Part shown: piece after piece, positions 1 through 43,744 of the stretch
Numbering within the stretch: the stretch's first letter is position 1
Layout: the number at the start of each line of letters is the position of its first letter
Source of the DNA: Antedon mediterranea
Taxonomy: Eukaryota; Animalia; Echinodermata
DNA length: 64,000 nucleotides
NCBI RefSeq assembly: GCF_964355755.1
Contig: NC_092671.1
Span: 15,128,001-15,192,000, forward strand
Direction of reading: 5' to 3'
Position numbers and translations under genes: made by a program
Notes under the pieces: generated by a model
Seen by the model: the letters and a program-made list of their open reading frames with translations, nothing else
What the model was told of the DNA's origin: nothing
Databases searched by the model: none

Positions 1-2960
1 TCAATCTCAATTAAGTAGCTATTCCAGTAATATGTTTATTTTTCAGATAATGATCCCTGCACTTCAAATCCTTGTGGCACCAATGGAGACTGCAATTCTG
101 ATCAATGCTCATTTACTTGTGGATGTGATCCTTGTTACTCTGGTGCTGCTTGTCAGACATGTAAGTTTACTGACTTAACAGTCTTTCAATTCCATTTGAA
201 AACAGTTTAACATCAAAGCCAAATAGGTCAACAGACAGTAGTTACGCTTCAGATAAATTACTGCCAATAACCAGATAGTCAATCTCAATTAAGTAGCTAT
301 TCCAGTAATTTGTTTTTTATTTTTTAGATAATGATCCCTGCACTTCAAATCCTTGTGGCGCCAATGGAGACTGCAATTCTGATCAATGCTCATTTACTTG
401 TGCATGTGATCCTTGTTACTCTGGTGCTGCTTGTCAGACATGTAAGTTTACTGACTTAACGGTCCTTCAATTCCATTTGAAAACAGTTTGACATCAATGC
501 CAAATAGGTCAACAGACAATAGTTACACTTCAGATAACTTACTGCCAATAACCAGATAGTCAATCTCAATTAAGTAGCTATTCCAATATTTTGTTTGTTT
601 TTCAGATAATGATCCCTGCACTTCAAATCCTTGTGGCACCAATGGAGACTGCAATTCTGATCAATGCTCATTTACTTGTGCATGTGATCCTTGTTACTCT
701 GGTGCTGCTTGTCAGACATGTAAGTTTACTGACTTAACGGTCCTTCAATTCCATTTGAAAACAGTCTGACATCAAAGCCAAATAGATCAACAGACAATAG
801 TTATGCTTCAGATAAACTACTTCCAATAACCAGACAGTCAATCTCAATTAAGTAGCTATTCCAGTATTTTTTTTGTTTTTCAGATAATGATCCCTGCACT
901 TCAAATCCTTGTGGCGCCAATGGAGACTGCAATTCTGATCAATGCTCATTTACTTGTGCATGTGATCCTTGTTACTCTGGTGCTGCTTGTCAGACATGTA
1001 AGTTTACTGACTTAACGGTCTTTCAATTCCATTTGAAAACAGTTTGACATCAATGCCAAATAGGTCAACAGACAATAGTTACGCTACAAATAATTTACTG
1101 CCAATAACCAGATAGTCAATCTCAATTAAGTAGCTATTCCAGTAATATGTTTATTTTTCAGATAATGATCCCTGCACTTCAAATCCTTGTGGCACCAATG
1201 GAGACTGCAATTCTGATCAATGCTCATTTACTTGTGCATGTGATCCTTGTTACTCTGGTGCTGCTTGTCAGACATGTAAGTTTACTGACTTTACGGTCCT
1301 TCAATTCCATTTGAAAACTGTCTTGACATCAAAGCCAAATAGATCAACAGACAATAGTTATGCTTCAGATAAATTACTGCCAATAATCAGATAGTCAATC
1401 TCAATTAAGTATGTAATCCAGTAATTTGTTTATTTTTTAGATAATGATCCCTGCACTTCAAATCCTTGTGGCACCAATGGAGACTGCAATTCTGATCAAT
1501 GCTCATTTACTTGTGCATGTGATCCTTGTTACTCTGGTGCTGCTTGTCAGACATGTAAGTTTACTGACTTAACGGTCCTTCAATTCCATTTGAAAACAGT
1601 CTGACATCAAAGCCAAATAGATCAACAGACAATAGTTATGCTTCAGATAAACTACTTCCAATAATCAGATAGTCAATCTCAATTAAGTAGCTATTCCAAT
1701 ATTTTGTTTGTTTTTCAGATAATGATCCCTGCACTTCAAATCCTTGTGGCACCAATGGAGACTGCAATTCTGATCAATGCTCATTTACTTGTGCATGTGA
1801 TCCTTGTTACTCTGGTGCTGCTTGTCAGACATGTAAGTTTACTGACTTAACGGTCCTTCAATTCCATTTGAAAACCGTTTAACATCAAAGGCAAATAGGT
1901 CAACAGACAATAGTTTCGCTTCAGATAATTTACTGCCAATAATCAGATAGTCAATCTCAATTAAGTATGTAATCCAGTAATTTGTTTATTTTTTAGATAA
2001 TGATCCCTGCACTTCAAATCCTTGTGGCACCAATGGAGACTGCAATTCTGATCAATGCTCATTTACTTGTGCATGTGATCCTTGTTACTCTGGTGCTGCT
2101 TGTCAGACATGTAAGTTTACTGACTTAACGGTCTTTCAATTCCATTTGAAAACAGTTTGACATCAATGCCAAATAGGTCAACAGACAATAGTTACACTTC
2201 AGATAACTTACTGCCAATAACCAGATAGTCAATCTCAATTAAGTAGCTATTCCAGTAATTTCCTTGTTACTCTAGTGCTGCTTGTCAGACATGTAAGTTT
2301 ACTGTCTTTACTTGATAATACTTTACTTAATAATATTTAAAAACATTACGATATATTCTATACAGTATATGAATATTTAGTTGGCATGGGATGTGAGTGA
2401 TCTATAAATAAATACAAAAATATAAATTCAATTTGAATAGAGTTTTACAGATGCTCAGGATTGTTCTACACCATAGCATTGTACTTTATCTTTTTTTCAG
2501 ATAATTCAGATAATTTACTGCCAATAACCAGATAACTTACTGCCAATAACCAGATAGTCAATATCCAGGAGCTATTTCAGTAATTTGTTTGTTTTTCAGA
2601 TAATGATCCCTGCACTTCAAATCCTTGTGGCACCAATGGAGACTGCAATTCTGATCAATGCTCATTTACTTGTGCATGTGATCCTTGTTACTCTGGTGCT
2701 GCTTGTCAGACATGTAAGTTTACTGGCTTAACGGTCTTTCAATTCCATTTGAAAACAGTTTAACATCAAAGCCAAATAGGTCAACAGACAATAGTTACGC
2801 TTCAGATAATTTACTGCCAATAACCAGATTGTTTGTTTTTCAGATAATGATCCCTGCACTTCAAATCCTTGTGGCGCCAATGGAGACTGTAGTTCTGATC
2901 AATGCTCATTTACTTGTGCATGTGATGCTTGTTACTCTGGTGACACTTGTCAGACATGTA
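1..2960 (+). repeat. Intragenic tandem array of a ~278-bp exon+intron unit (gene A)
   Basis: Exon starts at 47, 328, 606, 884, 1162, 1441, 1719 and 1997 (spacing 278-281). Introns are nearly as similar between copies as the exons. Confidence 0.95.
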
Positions 2961-4882
2961 AGTTTACTGTCTTTACTTGATAATACTTTACTTAATAATA
3001 TTAAAAATTATTACGATATATTCTATATATGAATATTTAGTTGGCCAGAGATTAGTGAGTGATCTATGAATAGATACAAAAATATAAATTCAATTTGAAT
3101 AAAGTTTTACAGATGCTCAGGATTGTTCTACACCATAGCATTGTACTTTACCTTGTCAATTTCTTTAAGCATGTTTTCCAGTCGACATTGTGTTGCCTTG
3201 AATTTTCAAATTGTTAAAGTTGAAAATAAATACCAATAACCGAGCCAGACCGCTAATATTTACGCATTTTTATGTGATCGTTCATGGTTTTCTTGGTTCT
3301 ATCGAGCATTGCTGGGACACTCTCACGTGAAGTGTTGCAGACCGCGGGCCAGCTACACGCAGCCGGGACCACATACGAATTTGAAAAAGTCTGAAGTTCT
3401 TGATACTCAGCTGCAACCTGTTTATGCTGATATCTTAATCTATGTTTACAATAAGAAAAAAATGTATTTCATTGTGTTTGTATTATAATTAAGTTTGACT
3501 TACACTTGTTATTTTGAAATATATATAATATATATAAACATTGTCGCGTTTTAAAAATTCAAGAATTGTCAGTGCAAACTTATTTTTTTACAAACTATGA
3601 CGTAATTTGGGAACCATTTGATTGGTTAGTTTTAACTATCAATGAAGTTGAACTCGGTTCCTGTAAAAATGTTGAATCCAGTTATTTAAACTTTTCTGGA
3701 AAACAGGCTTTACCAAATAAGAATACAGTATTATTTATAGCCATTATCATCAGCAGATTTAAGTTAACACACTCTTCTTTCATGTATGTTTTATTTAGTG
3801 TAAGCCTAAACCTAAAAATTATAATACATTTCTGTATTTGTTTTTGGATTGTCATTTTTAGATACTGATCCATGTGATTCAAGTCCTTGTAATGCGTTTC
3901 AAGAATGTTCCATTGCCATTAGTGGAAATCAATGTGGTTATGATTGTGACTGTCTTCCCTGCTATTGGGGATCAAATTGTCAAAATGGTATGTTTTAGTA
4001 TCGTTCTGCTACTAAAAATGCATTTGCGAGTTTTTGAAAGCGTGTCACTGCATAGACCCATACACAGACACTCAAACATACATGAACTAGTACACCAGGT
4101 TTTATCACTCACTCATCTTAAAAGATGCCCGTCCACCAAAATCATTAAAAACATTCTGGTAAGCGAAAAACAAACATTTTTAATCTTTTATTTCTTATGA
4201 CCATTTACACAAAACAGATTGTACGGGGAATACTATATGCTTTTTTGCTTACATTACTGCTCGTCGTGTAAATTGGCCTTAAGAAACATACTTAAACAAA
4301 CTTGACCTCTCCCAGAGTTTTCTTAAGGCACCGGACCAAATGCGCGCTTAATGTGAATGTAGCTTGTTGCTAAATGGCAAAGAATAAGTGCGAAGTAGTA
4401 GATGAAACGAGAATGGATACTTTGACAGAGGTGAGCTGTAAAGTTGACAAGATAACCACCATAACTTTTTTTTTTATTGTTAGTGAGAGGTGGATGCAAT
4501 GGCACACCTTGTCAAAATGGAGGAACATGTGTACCAGTCCCATTTTCTGAAAATATCTGTTTTTATAGATGCGAATGTGAAGAGGGGCATTTTGGCAACA
4601 ACTGTCAATTTGATGGTAAATGTTTAAAACAATTCACATTCAAATGATGATTGATCACCAACTAGCTTAATTTTCACATAGCTCACCTACCGTGAAGTAG
4701 GAAAAATTCTGATCGCCACTCTGCTTAATATAAGCTTTCCATATAAAACCTCTAAAATAATTTTGTTTCCTGTACCATTTTTATATGTCATTTATGTGTT
4801 TGAACCAAATAAACCAAATCAAATCAGGTATTCAAGCAATTGTCTGCATAATAATTAAAATATTATTTTTCTTTCAGAATAA
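47..4882 (+). CDS. Gene A, 3' portion of a multi-EGF (fibropellin/Notch-repeat-like) protein; 5' end lies upstream of the window
   Basis: AG/GT-bounded phase-1 exons at 47-160, 328-441, 606-719, 884-997, 1162-1275, 1441-1554, 1719-1832, 1997-2110, 2600-2713 and 2844-2957 (114 nt each, YNDPCTSNPCGTNGDCNSDQCSFTCACDPCYSGAACQT). Then 3862-3987 (TDPCDSSPCNAFQECSIAISGNQCGYDCDCLPCYWGSNCQN), 4484-4615 (VRGGCNGTPCQNGGTC...CECEEGHFGNNCQFD) and a likely last exon from 4878 giving E-stop (TAA 4880-4882). AATAAA near 4943. The terminal exon is less certain than the EGF exons. Confidence 0.85.
2261..2292 (+). pseudogene. 5'-deleted EGF exon remnant (donor kept, acceptor lost)
   Basis: The intron sequence ...tccagtaatt joins directly to tccttgttactctagtgctgcttgtcagacat|gtaag. 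The polypyrimidine tract, the AG and the first ~80 nt of the exon are missing. Confidence 0.8.
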
Positions 4883-9504: not shown

Positions 9505-12500
9505 ATGGAGCTACAAATTACTTTAATTGTTTTGAGCATATTTAATTTTGCAAATGCTGGTAAGTCTTTATCTTATCTATTTCATATTTGTGTAGATGGT
9601 TAATGCTGTAGAAATTAAATTTAGTAAATTATTAAAATTGTTAAAATAAAAAATAGTATAACAAATTTAGTGTAGTTAATACTATAAAAAAGTGTGTTAA
9701 TTTAAAATTTTTTTTTGTGAAAACAAATTACCAATGTTATTCATTAATAAGTTATAAAATACCTGAGATTGTAAGAATTTTGTAAAAAAAATACTACAAA
9801 ATGAATGAAAAAATAAATGTTCACACAATAATTAATTAATTGTTTTGACTGAAGAAGATAATAGGAAACAAATACACTCGAATACATAGTGTTGATTGAA
9901 ATGTTACTACCCCACTGATTTCTTATAGGCTATATACCAGTAGGGGATCCATGTTTAAATCACAGATGTAGCGAGTATGGAGAATGTGTAGCCAATGCGT
10001 GGGGTACAGGCTACTACTGTCGGTGCACAGAGTCATGCTATAGTGGCCCCTATTGTACTACCTGTAAGTATCATTACTTTCATGAATATAATTATGTATA
10101 CTAAAAAAAAATACTAAGATACAGGAAAACATGTATAACAGGCAATATTATACAAATAAAAAAAGTACTATTAAATGTTCGTTCATTAGTGCATACTATT
10201 GCATGCCATGTGATCCACAATCATCCAATCAAATGAAATGAATTTATTTATGTTTTATATAATATGTGTTATTGGGTAGGAATGCTGGATATACTCACAA
10301 GGATTATAATGGAAAAATACTTTCCAATGTGATTTTTAGACGGTAGTATTAGTAATAAATTATTATAAAGCCAATGTTATGTTACTCTATTGTTTAATCT
10401 TATTTTCAGATAACAATCCATGTGGAAGTATATGGTGCAAGAATGGTGGACTTTGTGAATCCGATGGATGTGATGCTAGTTGTAAATGTGAAGGGTGTTA
10501 CAGTGGGCAGGTTTGCCAAACATGTAAGTTGACTTTTTTTATTCAATGAGTAAAATTACTTGGTGTAATTACTATATAGTATAATTTCACACCCTAATTA
10601 AAATGTACTTTACTGTTATATTGTATATAGTAGGCCTATACCTACTATACTGTAGTTGAGTACTGTCTTAGTGTAATTTCACTTTGCCCTGCTATTATAT
10701 CTATATACAATAAAAGAAACAAAAATAATTCTTGTGTTATTAACATATGACCTACCACTCCATTCACAATCATTTGTATAATTTTCGATTTAAACATGAT
10801 GAACTATTGAGCCAACATATCAACAGTTTTGTTGATGTTGATAATTTTCCTTCAATTGTTTTCTATTTTTGTGTTTCTTGAAGATTCCGATCCATGTAAC
10901 GAGGTTAACTGTAATGGCGGTGAGTGTGAAGTCATCTCAACAGATTCTGAATGTTCATATAGATGCAGAAATTGCCCCCAATATTATTATGGAAGTCATT
11001 GCGAACTCAGTAAGTTGATAATATAGCATGTTATGTTAATATAGCATGAAGCCATTGATAAATTTAATCATTGTAGGCCTAGTTTGATGTTCTTACTACA
11101 GTTGAAATATTTTCTAAAATATTATGTTAAAAGTGAAATAAATATTTGTGTGAACATACTGTAACTTTGTGTTTTATTACATTTTTTAGAAAGAAATCCA
11201 TGTGACTCAGTTGACTGTAAAAATAGTGGAAATTGTTACATTGATTCTTATTACCAAGTATATTGCGAATGTCAAGATTGTTATTCTGGAACATACTGTG
11301 AAAAATGTAAGTTTGTTGAATTTCGAATCCAAAATTATTTTTTCTTATCTTAATTACAATTAATTAATATTATTTTATTAATTTAAATATAATGAAATTA
11401 TATACTTTTTTCTTACAGATAATGATCCTTGTTATAATGATGATAATCCATGTGAAAATTCTGGTCTCTGTATTTCTGAGGGTTGTAATTTTTGGTGTAA
11501 ATGTCCACCATGCTATACTGGTGACAGTTGTGAAAATGGTAAATCTTACATATTACATTTTCAGTGTTGTACTGTACCTAGTAAACAAAAATCCACAGCT
11601 AAAATTTTATTTCATTTGATAAATTTTTACTTTATCGTTTTACAGAAATTGATCCTTGCAGTGATATTGACTGTAATGGTGGCAAATGTGACGTAATCTC
11701 AACAGATTCAGTGTGTTCATACCAATGTATTAACTGTCCTGCTCACTATTCTGGAGATAACTGTGAAATATGTAAGTTTACTTAATTATACATTCATTAA
11801 TCATTATCAAATATATTCCATATAAAATCATTTGCTTTAATCATCTCTATTCTATTCTTCAGATACCAATCCATGTGACTCAGTTGATTGTAAAAATGGT
11901 GGAAATTGTTACATTAATTCTTATTACCAAGTTTATTGCGAGTGTCAAGATTGTTATTCTGGAACATACTGTGAAAAATGTAAGTTTGTTGAATTTCGAA
12001 TCCAAAATTTCTTATCTTAGTTCATTGAAATAAAAATAACAATTTATACACATTTTTCTTACAGATAATGATCCTTGTAATCATTATAGTAATCCATGTG
12101 AAAACTCTGGTCTCTGTATTTCTGAGGGTTGTAATTTTTGGTGTAAATGTCCAGCATGCTATACTGGTGAAAGTTGTGAAAATGGTAAAACACTGTCTAA
12201 TATTACATATATTACATGAACCTCTTTGTTAGAAAATGAGTAAAAATTTATGGCTAAATAAAACTTATGATATGTTTTTCAGTGTTGTAACTAGTAAACA
12301 AAAATTAACAGCTAAAACATTATTTCATTTGATGACATTTTACTTTATTGTTTTACAGAAATTGATCCTTGCAGTGATATTGACTGTAATGGTGGTAAAT
12401 GTGACGTAATCTCAACAGATTCAGTGTGTTCATACCAATGTATTAACTGTCCTGCTCACTATTCTGGAGATAACTGTGAAATATGTAAGTTACTTAATTA

Positions 12501-15500
12501 TACATCCATTAATCATTATCAAATAATATTCCATATAAAATCATTTTTGCTTTAATCATCTCTATTCTATTCTTCAGATACCAATCCATGTGACTCAGTT
12601 GATTGTAAAAATGGTGGAAATTGTTACATTAATTCTTATTATCAAGTTTATTGTGAATGTCAAGATTGTTATTCTGGAACATACTGTGAAAAATGTAAGT
12701 TTGTTGAATTTTGATCAACAATTATTATTTTTTCTATCTTAGTTACAATTACTAAAGTTATTTGAAATAAAACTAACAATTTATTAATTTAAATATAATG
12801 GAATTATACACTTTTTTCTTACAGATAATGATCCTTGTAGTGATGATAGTAATCCATGTGAAAACTCTGGTCTCTGTATTTCTGAGGGTTGTAATTTTTG
12901 GTGTAAATGTCCAGCATGCTATACTGGTGAAAGTTGTGAAAATGGTAAAACACTGTCTAATATTACATATATTACATTAACCTCTTTGTTAGAAAATGAG
13001 TAAAAATGTATGCCTAAATAAAACTTATGATATGTTTTTCAGTGTTGTAACTAGTAAACAAAAATTAACAGCTAAAACATTATTTCATTTGATGAATTTT
13101 TACTTTATTGTTTTACAGAAATTGATCCTTGCAGTGATATTGACTGTAATGGTGGCAAATGTGACGTAATCTCAACTAATTCAGTGTGTTCATACCAATG
13201 TATTAACTGTCCTGCTCACTATTCTGGAGATAACTGTGAAATATGTAAGTTACTTAATTATACATTCATTAATCATTATCAAATAATATTCCATATAAAA
13301 TCATTTGCTTTAATCATCTCTATTCTATTCTTCAGATACCAATCCATGTGACTCAGTTGATTGTAAAAATGGTGGAAATTGTTACATTAATTCTTATTAC
13401 CAAGTTTATTGCGAGTGTCAAGATTGTTATTCTGGAACATACTGTGAAAAATGTAAGTTTGTTGAATTTCGAATCCAAAATTTCTTATCTTAGTTCATTG
13501 AAATAAAAATAACAATTTATACACATTTTTCTTACAGATAATGATCCTTGTAATAATTATAGTAATCCATGTGAAAACTCTGGTCTCTGTATTTCTGAGG
13601 GTTGTAATTTTTGGTGTAAATGTCCAGCATGCTATACTGGTGAAAGTTGTGAAAATGGTAAAACACTGTCTAATATTACATATATTACATGAACCTCTTT
13701 GTTAGAAAATGAGTAAAAATTTATGGCTAAATAAAACTTATGATATGTTTTTCAGTGTTGTAACTAGTAAACAAAAATTAACAGCTAAAACATTATTTCA
13801 TTTGATGACATTTTACTTTATTGTTTTACAGAAATTGATCCTTGCAGTGATATTGACTGTAATGGTGGTAAATGTGACGTAATCTCAACAGATTCAGTGT
13901 GTTCATACCAATGTATTAACTGTCCTGCTCACTATTCTGGAGATAACTGTGAAATATGTAAGTTACTTAATTATACATCCATTAATCATTATCAAATAAT
14001 ATTCCATATAAAATCATTTTTGCTTTAATCATCTCTATTCTATTCTTCAGATACCAATCCATGTGACTCAGTTGATTGTAAAAATGGTGGAAATTGTTAC
14101 ATTAATTCTTATTATCAAGTTTATTGTGAATGTCAAGATTGTTATTCTGGAACATACTGTGAAAAATGTAAGTTTGTTGAATTTTGATCAACAATTATTA
14201 TTTTTTCTATCTTAGTTACAATTACTAAAGTTATTTGAAATAAAACTAACAATTTATTAATTTAAATATAATGGAATTATACACTTTTTTCTTACAGATA
14301 ATGATCCTTGTAGTGATGATAGTAATCCATGTGAAAACTCTGGTCTCTGTATTTCTGAGGGTTGTAATTTTTGGTGTAAATGTCCAGCATGCTATACTGG
14401 TGAAAGTTGTGAAAATGGTAAAACACTGTCTAATATTACATATATTACATTAACCTCTTTGTTAGAAAATGAGTAAAAATGTATGCCTAAATAAAACTTA
14501 TGATATGTTTTTCAGTGTTGTAACTAGTAAACAAAAATTAACAGCTAAAACATTATTTCATTTGATGAATTTTTACTTTATTGTTTTACAGAAATTGATC
14601 CTTGCAGTGATATTGACTGTAATGGTGGCAAATGTGACGTAATCTCAACTAATTCAGTGTGTTCATACCAATGTATTAACTGTCCTGCTCACTATTCTGG
14701 AGATAACTGTGAAATATGTAAGTTACTTAATTATACATTCATTAATCATTATCAAATAATATTCCATATAAAATCATTTGCTTTAATCATCTCTATTCTA
14801 TTCTTCAGATACCAATCCATGTGACTCAGTTGATTGTAAAAATGGTGGAAATTGTTACATTAATTCTTATTACCAAGTTTATTGCGAGTGTCAAGATTGT
14901 TATTCTGGAACATACTGTGAAAAATGTAAGTTTGTTGAATTTTGAATCCAAAATTTCTTATCTTAGTTCATTGAAATAAGAATAACAATTTATACACATT
15001 TTTCTTACAGATAATGATCCTTGTAATAATTATAGTAATCCATGTGAAAACTCTGGTCTCTGTATTTCTGAGGGTTGTAATTTTTGGTGTAAATGTCCCG
15101 CATGCTATACTGGTGACAGTTGTGAAAATGGTAAGACACTGTCTAACATCTTACATATATTTAATGAACCTTTTTGTTAGAAATGAGTACAAATCAACTA
15201 ATTTGAAAATGTAATGCCTAAATACAATTTATGATAGGTTGTAACTAGTAAACAAAAATCAAGAGCAAAAACATTATTTAATTTGATGACATTTTACTTT
15301 ATTGTTTTACAGAAATTGATCCTTGCAGTGATATTGACTGTAATGGTGGCAAATGTGATGTAATCTCAACTGATTCAGTGTGTTCATACCAATGTATTAA
15401 CTGTCCTGCTCACTATTCTGGAGATAACTGTGAAATATGTAAATTAACTTATTATACATTCATAATCATTATCAAGTATGCCTTATAACATCATTTGTGC

Positions 15501-18500: not shown

Positions 18501-18799
18501 ACTACTGGCAATAGATGTCAATGTAAGTATGAACACGGATTACAAAATGTATGTGTTTATGCGTTTGTTACCTAATTAACAATGCCTCTCGGAGTACAGT
18601 GATTTATTTGTTACTAACAAGACTCCTATGTCATAATTAACAATGCCTCTCGGTCTACAGTGATTTATTTGTTACTAACAAGACTCCTATGTCATAATTA
18701 ACAATGCCTCTCGGAGTACAGTGATTTATGTGATAAGACTAACATTTTACAATTTTACTTGCAGATACTTCTGGTTACTACGCCCCATACGGAGGATAA
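9505..18799 (+). CDS. Gene B: secreted protein with signal peptide, 30 tandem EGF-like modules and Tyr-rich tail (~1241 aa, 32 coding exons)
   Basis: Signal exon 9505-9559 (MELQITLIVLSIFNFANA). EGF exons: 9929-10063, 10410-10523, 10884-11009, 11190-11306, 11419-11538, 11646-11771, 11863-11979, 12065-12184, 12359-12484, 12578-12694, 12825-12944, 13119-13244, 13336-13452, 13538-13657, 13832-13957, 14051-14167, 14298-14417, 14592-14717, 14809-14925, 15011-15130, 15313-15438, 15528-15644, 15775-15894, 16071-16196, 16290-16406, 16501-16620, 16841-16966, 17452-17568, 17986-18105, 18403-18522. Last exon 18765-18799 (YTSGYYAPYGG*). All introns are GT-AG and phase 1, and all EGF exon lengths are divisible by 3. 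No TM segment seen. Confidence 0.92.
11190..16620 (+). repeat. Intragenic tandem array of a three-exon unit (~700-760 bp) with a 1473-bp six-exon higher-order duplication
   Basis: Exon types NPCDSVDCKNGGNC / DPC..NPCENSGLC / DPCSDIDCNGGKC cycle in strict order. The offsets 11863->13336->14809 and 12825->14298 are all 1473 bp, and identical ORF-track entries appear at 12798 and 14271. Confidence 0.95.
17046..17130 (+). mobile_element. Decayed 5' end of a Helentron/HINE (DINE-1-like) element
   Basis: ttattACCTCCaccagaattgcaGGAGGTtat short palindrome followed by a degenerate GTTT/GTCT microsatellite and ttagcaggat. This resembles the left end of HINE-type elements, recognised from memory only. 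Confidence 0.4.
17584..17726. mobile_element. 143-bp MITE with TAA target duplication (PIF/Harbinger, Tourist-like)
   Basis: taa|AGCTCTGTCTACACTAT ... ATAGTGTAGACAAAGCT|taa (16/17 TIR match). The internal arms are also imperfectly self-complementary. Confidence 0.8.
18573..18729. repeat. 61-bp minisatellite, ~2.6 copies, last intron of gene B
   Basis: taattaacaatgcctctcgg... starts at 18573, 18634 and 18695. Confidence 0.9.
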
Positions 18800-21891: not shown

Positions 21892-21904
21892 TATATATAT
21901 AAAA
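21892..21904 (+). promoter_or_regulatory. Putative TATA box of gene C
   Basis: TATATATATAAAA about 50 nt upstream of ATG 21954, matching the spacing seen in gene B. Confidence 0.4.
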
Positions 21905-21953
21905 AAAAATTTTTGTGCAAAATATTTATTATTGGGTCAAGCATACAAGGAAG

Positions 21954-30900: not shown

Positions 30901-33900
30901 GTTATCTTTAGTTCAAAATCCATGTTCTGGTGTCGTGTGTCAATTTGGTGGAACTTGTCAAGTAACGACAGCTAATGGACAATGTGGATTCCAATGTCAA
31001 TGTCCAACGTGCTATTTTGGAACATTCTGTGAAAATGGTAAAATTACTTTGGAAATAATATAGCATATTACACAAATTATCTTCCACAAGGCCGTCGTAA
31101 TACTTTGTCTTGTTTATTATTAGTTCAAAATCCATGTTCTGGTGTCTTGTGTCAATTTGATGGAAGTTGTCAAGTAACCACAACCAATGGACAATGTGAA
31201 TTCCAATGTCAATGTCCAACGTGCCATTCTGGAACATTCTGTGAAAATGGTAAAATTACTTTTATAATTATAATATAGTACATTTATGCTTTAATAAACA
31301 CAAATTATCTTCTACAGGGTCGTCGTAATATGTTGTTTCTTCTGTTTATCTTTAGTTCAAAATCCATGTTCTGGTGTCCTGTGTCAATTTGGTGGAACTT
31401 GTCAAGTAACGACAGCTAATGGACAATGTGGATTCCAATGTCAATGTCCAACCTGCTATTTTGGAACATTCTGTGAAAATGGTAAAATTACTTTGGAAAT
31501 AATATAGCATATTTATGGTTTCAGAAACACCAATATTCTCTTTCACAAGGTCGTCGTAATACTTTGTCTTGTTTATCTTTAGTTCAAAATCCATGTTCTG
31601 GTGCCCTGTGTCAATTTGGTGGAACTTGTCAAGTAACGGCAGCTAATGGACAATGTGGATTCCAATGTCAATGTCCAACGTGCTATTTTGGAACATTCTG
31701 TGAAAATGGTAAAATTACTTTGGAAATAATATAGCATATTTATTGTTTCAGAAACACCAATATTCTCTTTCACAAGGTCGTCGTAATACTTTGTCTTGTG
31801 TATTATTAGTTCAAAATACATGTTCTGTGGTCTTGTGTCAATTTGGTGGAACTTGTCAAGTAACGACAACCAATGGACAATGTGAATTCCAATGTCAATG
31901 TCCAACGTGCCATTCTGGAGTATTATGTGAAAATGGTAATAAAACAACAGCTTTATTGTTTTATTCCATAACGAGTTTCTGCTGGAAGGAGAAGTCATTT
32001 GAATTCGATTAAAGTTTTGTTTTTTATATCCCTACACTTCATACTACTATATTGTGTTTATCTTTAGTTCAAAATCCATGTTCTGGTGTCGAGTGCCAAT
32101 TTGGTGGAACTTGTCAAGTAACGACAACCAATGGACAATGTGAATTCCAATGTCAATGTCCAACGTGCCATTCTGGAGTATTATGTCAAAATAGTAATAA
32201 AACAACAGCTTTATTGTTTTATTCCATAACGAGTTTCTGCTAGAAGGAGAAGTCATTTGAATTCGATTAAAGTTTTGTTTTTTATATCCCTACACTTCAT
32301 ACTACTATATTGTGTTTATCTTTAGTTCAAAATCCATGTTCTGGTGTCGAGTGCCAATTTGGTGGAACTTGTCAAGTAACAACAACCAATGGACAATGTG
32401 GATTCCAATGTCAATGTCCAACGTGCCATTCTGGAACATTCTGTGAAAATGGTAAAATTACTTTCATAATTATAATATAGTACATTTATGCTTTAATAAA
32501 CACGAATTATCTTCTACAGGGTCGTCGTAAAACTTTGTTTCTTGTGTTTATCTTTAGTTCAAAATCCATGTTCTGGTGTCGTGTGTCAATTTGGTGGAAT
32601 TTGTCAAGTAACGACAGCTGATGGACAATGTGGATTCCAATGTCAATGTCCAACGTGCCATTCTGGAACATTCTGTGAAAATGGTAAAATTACTTTCATA
32701 ATTATAATATAGTACATTTATGCTTTAATAAACACAAATTATCTTCTACAAGGTCGTCGTAATACTTTGTCTTGTTTATTATTAGTTCAAAATCCATGTT
32801 CTGGTGTCCTGTGTCAATTTGGTGGAACTTGTCAAGTAACGGCAGCTAATGGACAATGTGCATTCCAATGTCAATGTCCAACGTGCCATTCTGGAACATT
32901 CTGTGAAAATGGTAAAATTACTTTCATAATTATAATATAGTACATTTATGCTTTAATAAACACAAATTATCTTCTACAAGGTCGTCGTAATACTTTGTCT
33001 TGTTTATTATTAGTTCAAAATCCATGTTCTGGTGTCCTGTGTCAATTTGGTGGAACTTGTCAAGTAACGACAGCTAATGGACAATGTGAATTCCAATGTC
33101 AATGTCCAACGTGCCATTCTGGAAGATTCTGTCAAAATGGTAATATTATAATACAACAGCTTTATTGTTTTATACCATAACGAGTTTCTTACAAGAAGGA
33201 GAAGTCATTTGAATTCGATTAAAGTTTCATTTTTTATATCCCTACACTTCATACTACTATGTTGTGTTTATCTTTAGTTCAAAATCCATGTTCTGGTGTC
33301 GAGTGCCAATTTGGTGGAACTTGTCAAGTAACGACAACCAATGGACAATGTGAATTCCAATGTCAATGTCCAACGTGCCATTCTGGAGTATTATGTCAAA
33401 ATGGTAATAAAACAACAGCTTTATTGTTTTATTCCATAACGAGTTTCTGCTAGAAGGAGAAGTCATTTGAATTCGATTAAAGTTTTGTTTTTTATATCCC
33501 TACACTTCATACTACTATATTGTGTTTATCTTTAGTTCAAAATTCATGTTCTGGTGTCGAGTGCCAATTTGGTGGAACTTGTCAAGTAACAACAATCAAT
33601 GGACAATGTGGATTCCAATGTCAATGTCCAACGTGCCATTCTGGAACATTCTGTGAAAATGGTAAAATTACTTTCATAATTATAATATAGTACATTTATG
33701 CTTTAATAAACACGAATTATCTTCTACAGGGTCGTCGTAAAACTTTGTTTCTTGTGTTTATCTTTAGTTCAAAATCCATGTTCTGGTGTCGTGTGTCAAT
33801 TTGGTGGAATTTGTCAAGTAACGACAGCTGATGGACAATGTGGATTCCAATGTCAATGTCCAACGTGCCATTCTGGAACTTTCTGTGAAAATGGTAAAAT

Positions 33901-36900
33901 TACTTTCATAATTATAATATAGTACATTTATGCTTTAATAAACACAAATTATCTTCTACAAGGTCGTTGTAATACTTTGTCTTGTTTATTATTAGTTCAA
34001 AATCCATGTTCTGGTGTCCTGTGTCAATTTGGTGGAACTTGTCAAGTAACGGCAGCTAATGGACAATGTGGATTCCAATGTCAATGTCCAACGTGCCATT
34101 CTGGAACATTCTGTGAAAATGGTAAAATTACTTTCATAATTATAATATAGTACATGTATGCTTTAATAAACACAAATTATCTTCTACAAGGTCGTCGTAA
34201 TACGTTGTCTTGTTTATTATTAGTTCAAAATCCATGTTCTGGTGTCCTGTGTCAATTTGGTGGAACTTGTCAAGTAACGACAGCTAATGGACAATGTGAA
34301 TTCCAATGTCAATGTCCAACGTGCCATTCTGGAAGATTCTGTCAAAATGGTAATATTATAATACAACAGATTATTGTTTTATACCATAACGAGTTTCTTA
34401 CAAGAAGGAGAAGTCATTTGAATTCGATTAAAGTTTCATTTTTTATATCCCTACACTTCATACTACTATGTTGTGTTTATCTTTAGTTCAAAATCCATGT
34501 TCTGGTGTCGAGTGCCAATTTGGTGGAACTTGTCAAGTAACTACAGCTAACGGACAATGTGGATTCCAATGTCAATGTCCAACGTGCCATTCTGGAACAT
34601 TCTGTGAAAACGGTTAGACATCTTAACATGAATTGCCAATAAAATTATTTTCAGTAACTGTACTAGTCGATCATACTATTTAGATATTACTTCGCTAAAT
34701 TGTTTTACTGGTAACACACTGTAGATGCGCAATTCAAATAGTTCAACATGGATAGTTGTTTGGTCCATAATATATTGAAACATTTTATTCTCATTCTATA
34801 GGTTAAAATAATTGTACAGTTATTCAAATCATTATACCAATAATAGCACGTTTCTTTTTTTTTAGTCCAAACTCCATGCTCTGTTATTCAATGCCAATTT
34901 GGTGGCATTTGCCAGGTAACGACGACCAATAATCAATGTGGATATCGATGCCAATGCCCACCATGTTATTCTGGAACATTCTGTCAAAACTGTAAGTAAA
35001 ACTCACTATAATTCGATTCTTACTTTTGAGTTTCTCTATTTTCAATTTTAAACGAACAAGATGCTTCTTTACCATCAAACGTGTTTGTGTTTACTAGATC
35101 AAAATCAATGTGACGGCGTTACATGTCAGTTTGGTGGTACTTGTCAAGTAACAACAACCAATGGACAATGTGGATTCCAATGTCAATGTCCAACATGCTA
35201 TTCTGGAATCTTATGTCAAAATGGCAAGTTTCATTATTATGTATTATACTTAATCGAGATTTGTATTAATATCATTTGGATTTTCTTTTCATTGAAGAAA
35301 GTTGGAAACAATTAGTCGTAAAAAAGAAATATAACGATAGTAAGCAAATAGATCTATGCAAACCGTTTCTTATTTTTTATCAACAGTTCAAAATCCTTGT
35401 TCTGGTGTTGTGTGCCAATCAGGTGGAACTTGTCAAGTAGTAACAACCAATGGACAATGTGACTTCCAATGTCAATGTCCAACGTGCTATTCTGGAAGAT
35501 TCTGTGAAAGTGGTGAGATAATTCTTAATTTGTTTTTCTAAATAATCTGCAGATAGTAACACGACTTTTAAAATTTATAATTTAAGTTATTAAAGATTCA
35601 TGAACAATTTAATATTACTAGATGGTACGCTCGCTTCGCTCGCGTACCATCTAGGTCGTACCCACAGATGGTTCTCGAATACACAGTAATTTCAGCGTAA
35701 CAAAACTGGCGATTTCAAATGTACGTACCGCAGGACTATAATACATTGTCGTTTACAGAAACGAATAAATAGACACGATGATTTATGTAGTCAACTAAAA
35801 TTAGCACCCTGGGAATTACTTCCGAAGGAGAAACTTATCACAAAATGAGTCCAAATGTTTGATTTGGACTTATTTAAAGAAACCCAATTTGTGTTTTGTA
35901 TGTAACATTAGGGTTGAGGGATGGGAAAGCGGATAGGTACAAAGAAGAACAATTTTTAAATATATTCTTTATCCACTCAGTAACGAAATATTTCTTTCAT
36001 GTTTTATAGACCTATAAATAATATAGGCCTACATCTAAATACAGTAAAACATTTGCGATTTAATACTTTGTTAAAACTGTCACTGTCATAATCGATTGAA
36101 ATATTAAAGTACATGATATACACCACTACGACGTTTATATTTTTGGTAATTATTAATTAATACAAACGTTGAGAAGGAACTGTCAGTATAAAGTTTATTT
36201 GTATATAATAATGTGTTTATATATCTAACAGTAGAGCCTATCCACAATCTCAGTAATAAAGTTTATTTGTATATATTTTTATATTACATTTAACAGTATG
36301 AACATTCACAGTTAGAAATGTTTGATTCAAATGTTGACCAACAATAGTTATTAATAGGTATTTACAGTATTGTCGAAGTATTGCAAGTTTATTCTCAAAG
36401 GGCCCATATATTTACCTACCGTATGTGTTAAACCAAGGGCTCATAAATTTACCTACTTGTGTTACACTCTGGCAGACTGAGAGATTGGGATGTTCCATTC
36501 ATCGCAAATCAATACATTTGTAGAATCGTATATTAAATCTATCAAAATAGTATTTTTTAAGAAAATCGGCCTGTCTTCAACATTATGATGCTGTACTCTA
36601 GCTGTTCAACGGGTTTTTAGCTATTAAAAACAATTATCGTAGGAGGAGATAGGAAAATGCAAAGCCTCCTCGCATTTTTGTGGCGGGTATTTTTCAAGAT
36701 AGACATCCATTAGACAGTGCATACCACGATCGGAAAACACCCCTCTTTGGGGCAAATCGTTGAACCTAAATTCGTTTTAATCGTCAATAACTAATTATCT
36801 AACTTAATTTAATTAGTAAATAGGGTTAAATCAGGTGGTTAAAATCAGTACCGAAAGTACGAACCAACTTTATATACCATCGAGTAAAAATTCTAAAAGT

Positions 36901-39900
36901 AAGGCGCGATTTACCTAATTTTGCCCTTACGTAAATTTATATATAGATAATTGGTATTTTGTTTAATAGTTCAAAACCCGTGTGCCAATGCCCCTTGCCA
37001 GTCAGGTGGAACTTGTCAAGTAGTAACAACCAATGGACAATGTGACTTCCAATGTCAATGTCCAACGTGCTATTCTGGAAGATTCTGTGAAAGTGGTGAG
37101 ATAATTCTTAATTTGTTTTTCTAAATAATCTGCAGATAGTAACACGACTTTTAACATTTATAATTTAAGTTATTAAAGATTCATGAACAATTTAATATTA
37201 TAATCGGTATTTTGTTTAATAGTTCAAAACCCATGTGCCAATGCCCCTTGCCAGTCAGGTGGAACTTGTCAAGTAGTAACAACCAATGGACAATGTGACT
37301 TCCAATGTCAATGTCCAACGTGCTATTCTGGAAGATTCTGTGAAAGTGGTGAGATAATTCTTAATTTGTTTTTCTAAATAATCTGCAGATAGTAACACGA
37401 CTTTTACAATTTATAATTTAAGTTATTTTAAATTCATTAAACATTTAATATTATAATTGGTATTTTGTTTAATAGTTCAAAACCCGTGTGCCAATGCCCC
37501 TTGTCAGTCAGGTGGTACTTGTCAAGTAGTAACAACTGATGGACAATGTGACTTCCAATGTCAATGTCCAACCTGCTATTCTGGAAGATTCTGTGAAAGT
37601 GGTGAGATAATTCTTAATTTGTTTTTCTAAATAATCTGCAGATAGTAACACGACTTTTACAATTTATAATTTAAGTTATTGTAAATTCATGAACAATTTA
37701 ATATTATAATTGGTATTTTGTTTAATAGTTCAAAACCCATGTGCCAATGCCCCTTGCCAGTCAGGTGGTACTTGTCAAGTAGTAACAACCAATGGACAAT
37801 GTGACTTCCAATGTCAATGTCCAACGTGCTATTCTGGAAGATTCTGTGAAAATGGTGAGATAATTCTTAATTTGTTTTTCTAAATAATCTGCAGATAGTA
37901 ACACGACTTCTACAATTTATAATTTAAGTTATTGTTAATTCATGAACAATTTAATATTATAATTGGTATTTTGTTTAATAGTTCAAAACCCATGTGCCAA
38001 TGCCCCTTGCCAGTCTGGTGGAACTTGTCAAGTAGTAACAACCAATGGACAATGTGACTTCCAATGTCAATGTCCAACGTGCTATTCTGGAAGATTCTGT
38101 GAAAGTGGTGAGATAATTCTTAATTTGTTTTTCTAAATAATCTGCAGATAGTAACACGACTTTTACAATTTATAATTTAAGTTATTGTAAATTCATGAAC
38201 AATTTAATATTATAATTGGTATTTTGTTTAATAGTTCAAAACCCATGTGCCAATGCCCCTTGCCAGTCAGGTGGAACTTGTCAAGTAGTAACAACTGGTG
38301 GACAATGTGACTTCGAATGTCAATGTCCAACGTGCTATTCTGGAAGATTCTGTGAAAGTGGTGAGATAATTCTTAATTTGTTTTTCTAAATAATCTGCAG
38401 ATAGTAACACGACTTTTAAAATGTATAATTTAAGTTATTGTTAATTCATGAACAGTTTAATATTATAATTGGTATTTTGTTTAATAGTTCAAAACCCCTG
38501 TGCCAATGCCCCTTGTCAGTCAGGTGGTACTTGTCAAGTAGTAACAACTGATGGACAATGTGACTTCCAATGTCAATGTCCAACCTGCTATTCTGGAAGA
38601 TTCTGTGAAAGTGGTGAGATAATTCTTAATTTGTTTTTCTAAATAATCTGCAGATAGTAACACGACTTTTACAATTTATAATTTAAGTTATTGTAAATTC
38701 ATGAACAATTTAATATTATAATTGGTATTTTGTTTAATAGTTCAAAACCCATGTGCCAATGCCCCTTGCCAGTCAGGTGGAACTTGTCAAGTAGTAACAA
38801 CTGGTGGACAATGTGACTTCGAATGTCAATGTCCAACGTGCTATTCTGGAAGATTCTGTGAAAGTGGTGAGATAATTCTTAATTTGTTTTTCTAAATAAT
38901 CTGCAGATAGTAACACGACTTTTAAAATGTATAATTTAAGTTATTGTTAATTCATGAACAATTTAATATTATAATTGGTATTTTGTTTAATAGTTCAAAA
39001 CCCCTGTGCCAATGCCCCTTGCCAGTCTGGTGGAACTTGTCAAGTAGTAACAACCAATGGACAATGTGACTTCCAATGTCAATGTCCAACGTGCTATTCT
39101 GGAAGATTCTGTGAAAGTGGTGAGATAATTCTTAATTTGTTTTTCTAAATAATCTGCAGATAGTAACACGACTTTTAAAATGTATAATTTAAGTTATTGT
39201 TAATTCATGAACAATTTAATATTATAATTGGTATTTTGTTTAATAGTTCAAAACCCCTGTGCCAATGCCCCTTGTCAGTCAGGTGGTACTTGTCAAGTAG
39301 TAACAACTGATGGACAATGTGACTTCCAATGTCAATGTCCAACGTGCTATTTTGGAAGATTCTGTGAAAGTGGTGAGATAATTCTTAATTTGTTTTTCTA
39401 AATAATCTGCATATAGTAACACGACTTTTACAATTTATAATTTAAGTTATTATAAATTCATTAAAAATCTAATATTATAATTGGTATTTTGTTTAATAGT
39501 TCAAAACCCATGTGCCAATGCACCTTGCCAGTCAGGTGGAACTTGTCAAGTAGTAACAACTGGTGGACAATGTGACTTCCAATGTCAATGTCCAACGTGC
39601 TATTCTGGAAGATTCTGTGAAAGTGGTGAGATAATTCTTAATTTGTTTTTCTAAATAATCTGCAGATAGTAACACGACTTTTACAATTTATAATTTAAGT
39701 TATTGTAAATTCATGAACAATTTATTATTATAATTGGTATTTTGTTTAATAGTTCAAAACCCGTGTGCCAATGCCCCTTGTCAGTCAGGTGGTACTTGTC
39801 AAATAGTAACAACTGATGGACAATGTGACTTCCAATGTCAATGTCCAACGTGCTATTCTGGGAGATTCTGTGAAAGTGGTGAGACTCTTTCATTTTAGTT

Positions 39901-42900
39901 CTAGTAAGAACATCCAAAGTAGCCTTATCAATGTTTGCTACTACAGTACTATATTGTACAGTAGTAATTAATTATATTTTATTTGTCAGTTCAAAATCCA
40001 TGTGCTGTTGATATTTGTCAATTCGGTGGAACCTGTCAAGTAACAACAACCGATAATGTATGCGGATTCCAGTGTCAATGTCCAACATGTTTATCAGGAA
40101 CTTTCTGTGAAGTCGGTAAGCATAGCTGTTATTTATAGAAAGTCTTATATCTAGTAATTAAATAAAATAAATTGGTGGTCTATGGTTTTTTTAAATTCTT
40201 CTACATTTCCTCTTTTATTACTGTAGTTGAAAATACTTGTGCTGTTGATACTTGTCAATCTGGTGGTACTTGTCTGGTAACAAAAACCAATGGACAATGT
40301 GGCTTCCAATGTCAATGTCCAACGTGCTATTTTGGAACATTCTGTGAAAATGGTATGTATGTCATAAAGTCTTCATTTTTCTAAAGAGAAAAGCTATAAT
40401 AAAACAACATAATATTTAAACGGTCGAGATGATCATATTTAATTTCTTTTATCTTAGTTCAAAATCTATGTGCAGATATTGTGTGTCAATTTGGTGGTAC
40501 TTGTCAAGTAACAACAACTGATGGACAATGTGACTTCCAAAAATAAATAATTTTTAATAGTTAAACAAATTTATATATATTTATTTTATAACAGTTCAAA
40601 ATCCATGTTCTGGTGTTGTGTGCCAGTCAGGTGGAACTTGTCAGGTGACGACAACCAATGGACAATGTGGATTCCAATGTCAGTGCCTTCCATGCTACAC
40701 TGGAGATGTCTGCCAGACTTGTAGGTTGTGTTATACATTATTTGATATTCGTTTTAGATCAAATGTTTATCAAATTTCACATCTTATAAACTCGAGTTAC
40801 CTGTATATTCAATATGAGCTGAAATATCAAATAGCACGCCTCTGTCGTTCTGCATTTTGCCAAGTGTTCCAGAGCGTTTAATTTATTTGTTTTATTTTCA
40901 GATAACGATCCCTGTAATGATGTGGATTGTAATGGTGGTATTTGTAACGTTATATCAACTACAACAGAATGCAAATACGAATGTGAATGCCTTCCAAACT
41001 TTACTGGCAACGATTGTGAAATAGGTAATTGCGAAATGTACCTTCTTAAGAATTGATTTCCTCAATTGTACACTTTTATTATATTTTCCTTACAAATATC
41101 TTCAGAATGTGCCCATAACTCATAATTCATGTATTATATAATACTCTGTTTTATTTTAGTTGTTGATCCATGCGAAGATATAATATGTCAAAATGAAGGT
41201 ACTTGTTGTGTTGATGATACAAATGCTGCGACTTGTAAATGTCTACAATGTTTTGAAGGAGCGTTTTGTGAATTATGTAAGTACAGAGACAAACACAAAT
41301 TAAGATTGAGAGTACTTAAATGTTTGTATTTTAGTTAATACGAATAATATAAAATGTTCCTACCTCTAGTGCACAGTAATCAAGAGAACAATAATAATAT
41401 AATAGTCTAAAACTGATGATTACAAACAACCGTTATCAAAATTATTGTCTTTTTTACTAGATAACAATCCTTGTGATAATTTTATCTGTCAAAATGGCGG
41501 CGTGTGTAGTATCACTACAGGAACCAATCAGTGTGTTCCAGAATGTACGTGTGCACCGTGTTACACTGGGGCATTGTGCGAAACAGGTAAACATAATAAT
41601 TAGGAGATTATTCAAAATTTGTGAAATTGTTTGATTTATATTAATTTAACATCTTAGAAACCGATGAAAATTCCTGTTCATTCATTGTGATCCGACTGGT
41701 TTGCAATATACATTCCTTTTTTCTAAAAAAAAATTCTGGAAAGAGTTAACTGATATCCCAGTTAAAATGGCAATTATTCAATAAATCTAGAAGGAAACCT
41801 AGCACAAATCATTTTATTCCAACGTCACTCCATCAATTAAAAATCTTGACATCTTGATGTGGTTATTTCATTCTCTTTTAATTTAGCTTCAGATCCATGT
41901 TCTGGCGTATTGTGCCAAGCTGGTGGAACTTGTACGACGAAAGTAATCGATGGACAATGTACATTCTGGTGCCAATGTCCAACGTGTTATTCTGGACCAT
42001 TCTGTGAAAATGGTAAAATAAACAATTCTATTATTTTACTCTTTATTCCATCAATATTGGAGTTACATGAAGATGATCTAAAGAATAGGAATACAAATTG
42101 GTAATGTAACTGTAAATATATGATTTGCCATAATGCTCTGTGGCCTCTGTATTATTCATAAACGTGGCAGAGTTGTTGAATTTACTAATATTTAAAAATA
42201 TTACACATTTTTTTTTTAAATGTAAGTTGCAAATCCATGCGCTCCAGACCAGTGTCAGTCTGGTGGTACGTGTCAAGTAACAACAGCTGATGATTATTGT
42301 GGATTTCAATGCCAATGCTTACCATGTTATTCTGGAACATTCTGTCAAAATTGTAAGTAAAACTTCTAAATTACCATTCACTTCACTCATCAACATAACC
42401 ACCAATATTAGGATATATATTGCAGGAAGTAGTTTGTATACCATATAATTATAAGGTGGACTATTCCTACTACTAATTACTATAATAATTTCAGATAATG
42501 ATCCATGTGAATACTGTGATTGTAAACATGGTGGCACCTGTAACACTGTCATAAATGTTGATAGCAATACTTGTGTTGCAGAATGTACATGTCAAGGTTG
42601 TTATTATGGAGAATTTTGTGAATTGTGTAAGTTAATTCAACATTGTTTGTTACATGCCACGAATCAAAGTAGAATTGTAGGAAGCATTTATTCAGAGTTA
42701 CTTAAATCTCTACAGTGATTGCCTGCCATCCAATATTGGACATAGGCAGTTAATTCAAATTGGCCAGCTTGGCTTTGCCTTTAAAAAAAAAAAAATCATT
42801 TGTTATTTATATTGATCCTGTATAATACTATATAGAATAATATACTATAATACTAATTACATAAACACTTTTTGTATAGATATAAACGATGCATGTAATG

Positions 42901-43744
42901 GTCACCAATGTTTAAATGGTGGTGAGTGCAAGGCAACATTGTGTAACCAGTACATTTGTAAATGTCAATCTTGTTACACTGGACCATTATGCGCAGAACG
43001 TAGGTTTCCATTTTTGTTACATTGTGTTTTGGGTGGTTCCTCTTTAATTATACTGGTTTCTGCAAAGTGATATATAAAGATCTTCTAACCATGAATACCT
43101 CATTAGGCCTATTGCTTTTATAAATGGAAAGATGATAGATCGATGAGAATGGAATGGTTCATTTGCCATAACCCCACTCTTCTCCTATCCTTCTAACCAT
43201 ACCTCAGATAGTACTGATGGAAAGATGATAGATCTGTGAGAATGGAATGGTTCATTTGCCATAACCCCACTCTTCTCCTATCCTTCTAACCATACCTCAG
43301 ATACTACTGATGGAAAGATAATAGATCGATGAGAATGGAATGGTTCATTTGCCATAACCCCACTCTTCGCCTATTCTTCTAATCATACCTCAGATACTAA
43401 TGCTTTTCTATGGAAAGATGATAGATCGATGAGAATGGAATGGTTCATTTCCACACTCTTCTTCTAATCTCATCTTAAAATATGTTTATTATTATTAGGT
43501 ATCGACCCGTGCAGCAATAACCCTTGTTTGAATGGTGGTGTTTGTTCTCCTATTTCATTCAACGTATGTGATGCGTATAGGTGTTCATGTCCACGTCACA
43601 CTACAGGTGACCGGTGTCAAAGTAAGTAAATATTTTCTTTTTTAATGGAGGGTGTTCAAATGGGAACGTACCCGTATAAAGATAAATTGAACAACTTATT
43701 TTATTTCTTTTTCAGCTATTACTGGCTACTATGGATACTACTAA
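21954..43744 (+). CDS. Gene C: secreted protein with signal peptide, 62 tandem EGF-like modules and Tyr-rich tail (~2596 aa if all exons are used)
   Basis: Signal exon 21954-22008 (MELQLLIVIVGTFSFSSA). EGF exons: 22452-22586, 22858-22971, 23457-23579, 23764-23880, 24477-24602, 25288-25407, 25739-25852, 26067-26189, 26474-26590, 26842-26955, 27090-27212, 27432-27566, 28360-28473, 28780-28905, 29081-29194, 29637-29762, 29858-29971, 30167-30292, 30397-30519, 30671-30796. Then 126-nt exons starting at 30912, 31124, 31356, 31583, 31810, 32068, 32326, 32558, 32786, 33014, 33278, 33536, 33768, 33996, 34224, 34487, 34866, 35098, 35387, at 36970 plus 11 more every 253 bp to 39753, and at 39990, 40227, 40595. 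Then 40902-41024, 41160-41276, 41461-41586, 41887-42012, 42227-42352, 42495-42626, 42880-42999, 43499-43621. Last exon 43716-43744 (TITGYYGYY*). First and last modules are clearly paralogous to those of gene B. Confidence 0.9.
27700..28230 (-). mobile_element. 5'-truncated, degenerate LINE (CR1/L2-group) 3' end in a gene C intron
   Basis: The minus strand translates (with frameshifts) to VYDIYKVNVIGFMANVKFNELPHHILNIF...HNLRT...YTHGPKLWKEF, which resembles the post-RT C-terminus of CR1/L2-group ORF2. It is followed by a 3' UTR stem-loop (~27779-27822) and an (AAAT)n-like tail at 27700-27720. Confidence 0.7.
30912..34612 (+). repeat. Gene C exon array 1 (VQNPCSGVxCQFGGTC type; 16 exons at 212-264 bp spacing, with a 1210-bp five-exon duplication)
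   Basis: The offsets 32068->33278, 32326->33536, 32558->33768, 32786->33996 and 33014->34224 are all 1210 bp. A few intron types are shuffled among the units. Confidence 0.93.
35618..36947 (-). mobile_element. Non-autonomous Helitron, copy 2 (1330 bp, intact termini)
   Basis: The minus strand reads 5'-TCTATATATAAA...CTAGATGGTACGC gagcgaagcga GCGTACCATCTAG-3'. It is inserted between A and T with no TSD. Sibling introns preserve the empty site aatatta|taattgg. Confidence 0.93.
36970..39878 (+). repeat. Gene C exon array 2: twelve 253-bp exon+intron units (VQNPCANAPCQSGGTCQVVTTxGQCDFQCQCPTCYSGRFCES)
   Basis: Exon starts run 36970, 37223, 37476 ... 39753 at exactly 253-bp spacing. Confidence 0.97.
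40458..40547 (+). pseudogene. 3'-truncated EGF exon (acceptor intact, donor lost, in-frame stop)
   Basis: cttag|TTCAAAATCTATGT... encodes VQNLCADIVCQFGGTCQVTTTDGQCDFQK* (TAA 40544-40546), which overlaps AATAAA at 40542-40547. Confidence 0.8.
43124..43455. repeat. 93-bp minisatellite, ~3.5 copies, penultimate intron of gene C
   Basis: atggaaagatgatagatc... starts at 43124, 43217, 43310 and 43410. Confidence 0.9.

Follow-up and report, generated by a model that had tools for sequence, protein, structure and literature searches.

Complementary extra cysteines at EGF module junctions suggest a disulfide between neighbouring modules in three tandem genes of Antedon mediterranea

Findings

The window analysed here is a stretch of 64,000 nucleotides from the echinoderm Antedon mediterranea (assembly GCF_964355755.1, contig NC_092671.1, positions 15,128,001 to 15,192,000 of the forward strand), which contains three adjacent tandem genes, A, B and C, each a chain of EGF modules. 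Beyond their six canonical cysteines (C1 to C6) these modules carry up to two extra ones, namely a tail Cys at C5+3 (C5+4 in three modules) and a hairpin Cys at C4-4 or C4-5. In the window a tail Cys in module n is invariably accompanied by a hairpin Cys in module n+1, and judging from sequence it is likely that the two form an intrachain disulfide across the module boundary. An inter-domain disulfide of this kind had been proposed in an initial annotation of the window, and the proposal is well supported by the complementarity of the two cysteines, the cysteine accounting of gene B, unrelated proteins from outside the locus and the contact positions involved; the physical bond is what we infer from these. 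The rule itself is real and holds generally beyond this locus.

As we envisage it, genes A to C encode predicted secreted proteins made almost wholly of non-calcium-binding EGF modules, in which the Cys three residues past C5 of one module would bond to the Cys four or five residues ahead of C4 in the next. The extra cysteines would take the place of the Gly beside the C5+4 aromatic residue and of the Gly of the hairpin turn, so that the disulfide would fix covalently the usual near-linear interface, where Notch and fibrillin use Ca2+. Runs of modules joined in this way might be stiff, hard-to-stretch segments of 2, 3, 7 or 47 modules, and the junctions lacking both cysteines, held by non-covalent packing only, would be the likeliest places to bend or yield.

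Complementary cysteines in the window

Modules were delineated by a splice-aware parse of the + strand, with gene models drawn from splice signals and RNA support consisting of one weak contig. The parse gave 104 EGF exons between 47 and 43621 (12 in gene A, 30 in gene B and 62 in gene C), each of 114-135 bases, flanked by phase-1 introns and encoding a single phase-1/phase-1 module. These meet at 101 junctions (11 in A, 29 in B and 61 in C), 88 of which have both the tail Cys of module n and the hairpin Cys of module n+1 and are here called stapled; 13 (nine in B, four in C) have neither and are called open, and none is mixed. The counts in the initial annotation are thereby reproduced exactly, as is its observation that the hairpin Cys is missing from the opening module of B and of C, and the tail Cys from the closing module of each of the three genes. 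Within modules, 73 have both extra cysteines, 16 only the hairpin Cys and 15 only the tail Cys; as modules of the latter two kinds occur, the extra cysteines cannot simply pair inside one domain, a point on which the initial annotation was likewise correct. The accounting is complete in gene B, whose 30 EGF exons (9929..18522, + strand) form ten units of a tail-only, a both-Cys and a hairpin-only module, with 20 stapled and nine open junctions: the predicted protein of 1241 residues has 220 Cys, equal to 30x6 + 20x2, with zero left over.

Controls show that the register of the pairing matters. Pairing the hairpin Cys of n with the tail Cys of n+1 leaves 29/101 junctions mixed, and comparing the tail of n with the hairpin of n+2 leaves 26/98 mixed, while module order shuffled 20,000 times yielded 22.6 mixed junctions on average and never fewer than 11. 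After dereplication at 65-75% identity there remain 31-42 stapled and seven open junction types with none mixed (Fisher p about 1e-7 to 1e-8, for types that are still kin by descent). Three recent arrays contain 80 distinct non-synonymous codon variants, none of which hits any Cys.

Most junctions in the window are recent duplicates. A module tree was built from 55 dereplicated modules over 39 columns, with both diagnostic positions masked; 9 of its 52 branches have good support. In this tree the six internal tail-only types fall together in one clade (96/90), as do six of the seven internal hairpin-only types in a second (91/94), so that the open junction may have arisen once. An informative case is the module at 27090, which has a tail Cys although its C2-C3 spacing is short, as in hairpin-only modules; the module after it has the hairpin Cys. 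Both the duplicates and the tree uphold the caveat in the initial annotation that many junctions are not independent; the in-window statistics overstate independence. Such a history, with open junctions probably of one lineage, is what could be expected if there were no coupling at all and the pattern had arisen by chance when a few module types were duplicated in blocks, a reading that has to be judged on proteins from elsewhere.

The same rule in other proteins

Single-module profile searches, which are blind to junctions, returned 243 proteins, whose junctions have both cysteines in 9 cases, the tail Cys only in 0, the hairpin Cys only in 1 and neither in 4,115. Inspection by eye of 16 tail-pattern matches found 12 true C5-C6 loops (in Amphiura filiformis XP_072051694.1, Seison nebaliae KAI3383429.1 and KAI3382076.1, and ENA record P0188), all 12 followed by a hairpin Cys; the other four are not EGF tails. 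Junction-aware searches added HYR-EGF proteins of Amphiura, Diadema, Lytechinus, Holothuria and Apostichopus. Across 465 proteins with 8,381 parsed junctions, both cysteines are present at 81 (in 23 proteins), the tail Cys alone at none, the hairpin Cys alone at 17 and neither at 8,283. Repetition of the covariation count outside the window, which the initial annotation had suggested, thus places a hairpin Cys after 81/81 tail-Cys junctions and after 17/8,300 junctions without a tail Cys, a background of 0.2%. Seven further tail motifs fell outside the parser: two fit the rule, one precedes a hairpin Cys in an apparently garbled module, three have no intact EGF next and one is not an EGF tail. 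Stapled stretches in these proteins typically start with a tail-only module and finish with a hairpin-only module. The carriers are mostly echinoderm HYR-EGF proteins, plus Seison and some further records; as the searches give best matches only, this range represents a minimum, and the 81 cases do not stand for 81 events.

With the cysteines masked, each of the seven isolated outside staples tested finds its best match in an unstapled junction, which is what separate gains would produce, though the sequences are short and the test weak. Nearest-neighbour scoring of the window against the echinoderm stapled family gave a stapled best match for 4 of 32 stapled queries, with a pool share of 5%. 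No close relative of the window genes appears among the matches listed, a weak negative since long generic EGF arrays crowd the top, and the ESM Atlas gave generic EGF clusters only. The 81/81 association against a 0.2% background and, more weakly, the unstapled best matches of the isolated staples largely refute the accident reading, to which we give hardly any credence.

In 13 of the 17 hairpin-only cases the hairpin concerned holds a further Cys, and these cases come, where named, from bdelloids; the other four are orphans. The bdelloid rotifer DOMON-EGF proteins P0075, P0092, P0104, P0286 and P0301 have two extra cysteines within the hairpin between C3 and C4, which is probably a distinct variant with a disulfide inside the hairpin.

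Geometry of the junction

At EGF-EGF contacts the C5+4 aromatic residue of module n is packed against the major hairpin of module n+1 (PMC4826273), and a CD93 preprint describes the packing contact as aromatic to Gly (bioRxiv 2023.06.07.543655). When the window modules are aligned with Notch1, the residue matching the hairpin Cys is the turn Gly at C4-4, and the one matching the tail Cys is the Gly just ahead of the C5+4 aromatic. Gly occupies the tail position in 3,943 of the fetched modules, many more than any other residue, and C4-4 is mostly Asn or Gly. An aromatic residue or His occupies C5+4 in 87/88 stapled modules, and the linker is of six residues at 99/101 junctions. An AlphaFold2 model of a six-module Amphiura stretch, built from an eight-sequence alignment, reached a mean predicted local distance difference test (pLDDT) score of 86.9 and a predicted template modelling (pTM) score of 0.38; the single-sequence prediction had a pLDDT of 50. 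Over three of its modules the model can be superposed on Notch1 EGF11-13, with 117-120 residues fitting at 2.4-2.6 A (Z 7.3). The best-ranked structural match is Notch1 EGF20-24, where a Z of 10.8 comes with a root mean square deviation of 9.4 A, so that the long-range shape of the model is not defined. Sequence matches of the window modules in the PDB are Notch and DLL EGFs, and the titles of solved structures, which were searched as titles and not residue by residue through the chains, contain none indicating such a staple.

These data also bear on whether the modules fold in the assumed frame. The eight cysteines could instead belong to a re-phased fold, as in the eight-Cys modules of laminin and integrin, with the new unit straddling the exon boundary. 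Eight-Cys EGF variants do exist, the integrin version pairing 1-5, 2-4, 3-6 and 7-8 (PMC12383024), and only two of the 12 window modules tested, both terminal hairpin-only modules, reach the Pfam EGF cut-off. However, a test for the hEGF type found the six cysteines in canonical EGF spacing in 104/104 modules, with a C5-C6 loop of eight residues in 101 and nine in three; the modelled homologue is predicted to fold as ordinary EGFs, and stapled and plain modules alternate inside single proteins. We regard a re-phased fold as very improbable.

A second alternative retains the fold and moves the bond, the tail Cys of n pairing with the hairpin Cys of n+1 in a neighbouring, near-register chain and so cross-linking a fibre; in a variant of this idea the C5-x-x-C motif, present in 85/88 tail modules, could join thiol exchange during assembly. 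Identical covariation is predicted by such an interchain bond, and EGF-array proteins do form load-bearing fibres, as in octovafibrin (PMC10336842). Set against this, the cysteine positions match the intrachain contact, and isolated single staples in the otherwise plain arrays of the mosaic or membrane-anchored proteins P0122, P0124, P0188 and P0384 are hard to explain by cross-linking between chains. A two-chain complex prediction for the modules at 23766-23879 and 24479-24601 scored 0.03 and was not used either way. An interchain bond appears unlikely, though less so than re-phasing, and an intrachain disulfide between successive modules is the reading that we prefer.

Calcium, stiffness and possible function

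The consensus for calcium-binding EGF (cbEGF) modules consists of D/N-x-D/N-E/Q before C1, D/N after C3 and Y/F before C4 (PMC12979247). It is found in none of the 101 window modules with a preceding linker, in 93 of which the residue before C1 is Pro; the statement in the initial annotation that this consensus is largely absent is borne out. Its further division of the arrays into rods and hinges stands in part: that stapled runs are stiff is a reasonable inference, whereas the case for hinges is weaker than it had stated.

Several points weigh against the disulfide and its mechanical consequences. The C5+4 aromatic is kept at 13/13 open junctions, which need not then be flexible, and interfaces of non-calcium-binding EGFs can be rigid-bent or flexible in a way not predictable from sequence (PMC4826273). 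All 13 open junctions may represent one event, in a tree most of whose forks are poorly supported. The structural model is of a homologue, with a low pTM, and AlphaFold2 would know Notch geometry anyway. Outside the window the hairpin spacing is 4 in 73 of the 81 cases, mostly from one echinoderm family, and those cases were found by junction-aware queries, which favour double-Cys matches. Exceptions exist in the four orphan hairpin Cys and in three tail Cys without an intact EGF next (P0255, P0323 and P0362), and human Notch1 EGF25 and EGF27 carry non-canonical Cys (PMC12979247). Finally, the order of exons in the mRNA is a prediction from splice signals with slight RNA support.

More tentatively, and with doubt somewhat outweighing confidence, the staple might be a recurrent two-residue switch from interface Gly to Cys that replaces the Ca2+ clamp, the on or off state of which would set the length of stiff segments, making it a general, overlooked class of junction. 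Apart from most subscription papers and supplements, the literature yielded no account of this staple or of its on/off pattern, and it is probably an undescribed variant of inter-domain disulfide linking. The signal peptide, the EGF-only body, the Tyr/Gly-rich tails and the spare Cys in gene C together suggest a secreted structural, coat or adhesive protein, in analogy to octovafibrin and to adhesives rich in EGF repeats. Going by architecture, we guess at a load-bearing role outside the cell, as a fibre, coat or adhesive, and find this guess evenly balanced.

The shape of EGF arrays is usually put down to Ca2+ plus aromatic packing, and a two-Cys signature of a covalently fixed junction would be a further junction class, readable from sequence. 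It would also explain the eight- and seven-Cys modules that mostly lie under the Pfam cut-off. Were the reading true, gene B would encode ten trimers, each locked and connected to the next by a softer joint, and gene C would contain a locked 47-module rod, roughly 130-140 nm long at 3 nm per module. The repeat unit of gene B is a small, self-contained test object, and the staple would offer a natural template for locking single Notch-type interfaces, so as to ask whether their flexibility matters. If the switch reading holds, it would be usable as a design rule for fixing chosen EGF interfaces, and it may bear on tough marine extracellular materials.

Organization of the locus

The three genes occupy the AT-rich part of the window from base 1 to 43.8 kb (26-36% G+C), which is marked by short Cys-rich open frames on the + strand. 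Donor sites of the EGF exons are GT in 103 cases and GC in one (exon 35098-35223), and a profile scan found 10 modules with a two-residue C4-C5 spacing. Gene A is represented by its 3' part, with 12 EGF exons (47..4615, +), all 11 junctions stapled and the 5' end upstream of the window; its predicted terminal exon (4878..4882, +) meets a stop almost immediately. The visible part has 95 Cys with one left over, the hairpin Cys of the first visible module, which is expected because its upstream partner would be off-window. Gene B starts with an exon of 18 residues (9505..9559, +) with a phase-1 donor, called signal-peptide-like by eye from its hydrophobic core and the small residues at its end, and closes with a terminal exon (18765..18799, +) encoding the short Tyr/Gly-rich tail TSGYYAPYGG and a stop.

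Gene C likewise begins with an 18-residue signal-peptide-like exon (21954..22008, +). Its modules 1-8 (22452..26189, +) form stapled units of 3, 2 and 3 with an open junction after each; then come the 47-module run (26474..41024, +), with 46 stapled junctions, no break and largely recent tandem exon duplicates, and the last seven modules (41160..43621, +), with six stapled junctions and a final module without tail Cys. The terminal exon (43716..43744, +) encodes the Tyr/Gly-rich tail ITGYYGYY and a stop. The predicted protein, with stapled units of 3, 2, 3, 47 and 7 modules, has 2596 residues and 489 Cys, three of them left over. Of these off-code cysteines one lies right after C3 in the module at 26474..26590 (+), which follows an open junction, another is placed alike in its relative at 41160-41276, both modules being the first of a stapled run, and the third lies between C1 and C2 of the nine-Cys module at 42495..42626 (+); all three are candidate chain-to-chain links. 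Gene B has 119 Tyr in 1241 residues, and together with the Tyr/Gly-rich tails of genes B and C this raises the speculation of Tyr cross-linking or modification. The O-fucose consensus (C2-x4-S/T-C3) is fitted by 44/104 modules and the O-glucose consensus by 11/104.

Two broken exon remnants were excluded from the module and junction counts, one at 40458-40545 with its acceptor kept but ending before C4, the other at 2261-2292, a 3' exon end with a donor and no acceptor; they are signs of unequal recombination in the arrays. An element of 1.2-1.3 kb, probably a transposon remnant, occurs twice in opposite orientation at 79% identity (35666-36958, in an intron of gene C, and 5089-6320, between A and B), and from 46400 to 64000 the window is a satellite-like array with a 98-base unit, 324-478-base higher-order repeats and strong AT skew.

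Sequencing reads lend the locus some support. The DNA-like run X1 is identical to 21900-26280, 26251-27691 and 28158-30220, and runs X5 and X7, from a related second organism, extend over most of the interval 22.4-30.2 kb with an identity of roughly 92-95%; this coverage, which does not reach the 3' part of gene C, speaks against an assembly artefact there, although X1 may be the source sample. In a contig of run X8 (depth 3.8), whose RNA nature is only guessed and whose cover of gene C is patchy, the exon start at 42227 is joined directly onto exon-end sequence in a splice-like manner. Loose ends of X8 at 27209 and 28805 resemble spliced EGF-EGF junctions that differ from the sequence at these sites, a hint that the genome may have other members of the family in different places.

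Comparison with known systems

Disulfides between EGF modules are known from integrin beta3, in which C473-C503 joins EGF1 to EGF2 at a junction that forms a flexible knee (PMC12383024). The likeness to the integrin EGF (I-EGF) modules of beta subunits extends to the eight-Cys variants and the inter-EGF bond itself; unlike the window genes, they are not known to show an on/off pattern along the array. In integrins the partner Cys is located in the linker, immediately after C6. I-EGF modules have an extra Cys at their start that pairs with a hairpin Cys (the 1-5 pattern; PMC12383024); an assignment of the window modules to I-EGF was rejected, as their linkers have no Cys and their extra Cys lies between C5 and C6. 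Laminin-type EGF (LE) modules have eight Cys, the fourth disulfide being 7-8 after C6, and form Ca-independent rod-forming arrays; Wouters et al. in 2005 reportedly treated such four-disulfide EGFs and described their additional bond, in laminin as in integrin, as an inter-domain one. This assignment was also rejected, the window modules having no Cys pair after C6 and 31/104 of them carrying just one extra Cys; none of 12 modules tested gave a laminin-EGF match in Pfam.

Among secreted arrays, the fibropellins have an N-terminal C1s-like (CUB) domain and C-terminal avidin-like ends. Genes B and C have neither, their signal exon being followed directly by EGF exons and the frame closing with a tail about 10 residues long, so that they were rejected as fibropellins and the description "fibropellin-like" in the initial annotation is not borne out (the N-terminus of gene A is off-window). 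Octovafibrin is, like the window genes, a secreted tandem array, with 29 non-calcium-binding EGFs, and bears load, but differs in having three disulfides per module and lectin ends (PMC10336842); EGF repeats are frequent in marine adhesives (PMC9382459). The echinoderm hyalin-like HYR-EGF proteins, so named automatically (as XP_072051694.1), obey the same cysteine rule in runs of up to five junctions. They are mosaics with HYR repeats and mostly a hairpin spacing of 4, whereas the window genes are EGF-only with runs of up to 46 junctions; the closed gene models of B and C contain no HYR repeats (the introns were not scanned with the HYR profile).

By the features tested, the window modules belong to the EGF type but to none of the cbEGF, laminin LE, integrin I-EGF and fibropellin kinds. 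With Notch1 EGF11-13 they share the six-Cys fold, the six-residue linker, the C5+4 aromatic or His and, in the model of the homologue, the geometry; from the rods of Notch and fibrillin they differ in having no calcium consensus and in bearing Cys at two interface Gly positions.

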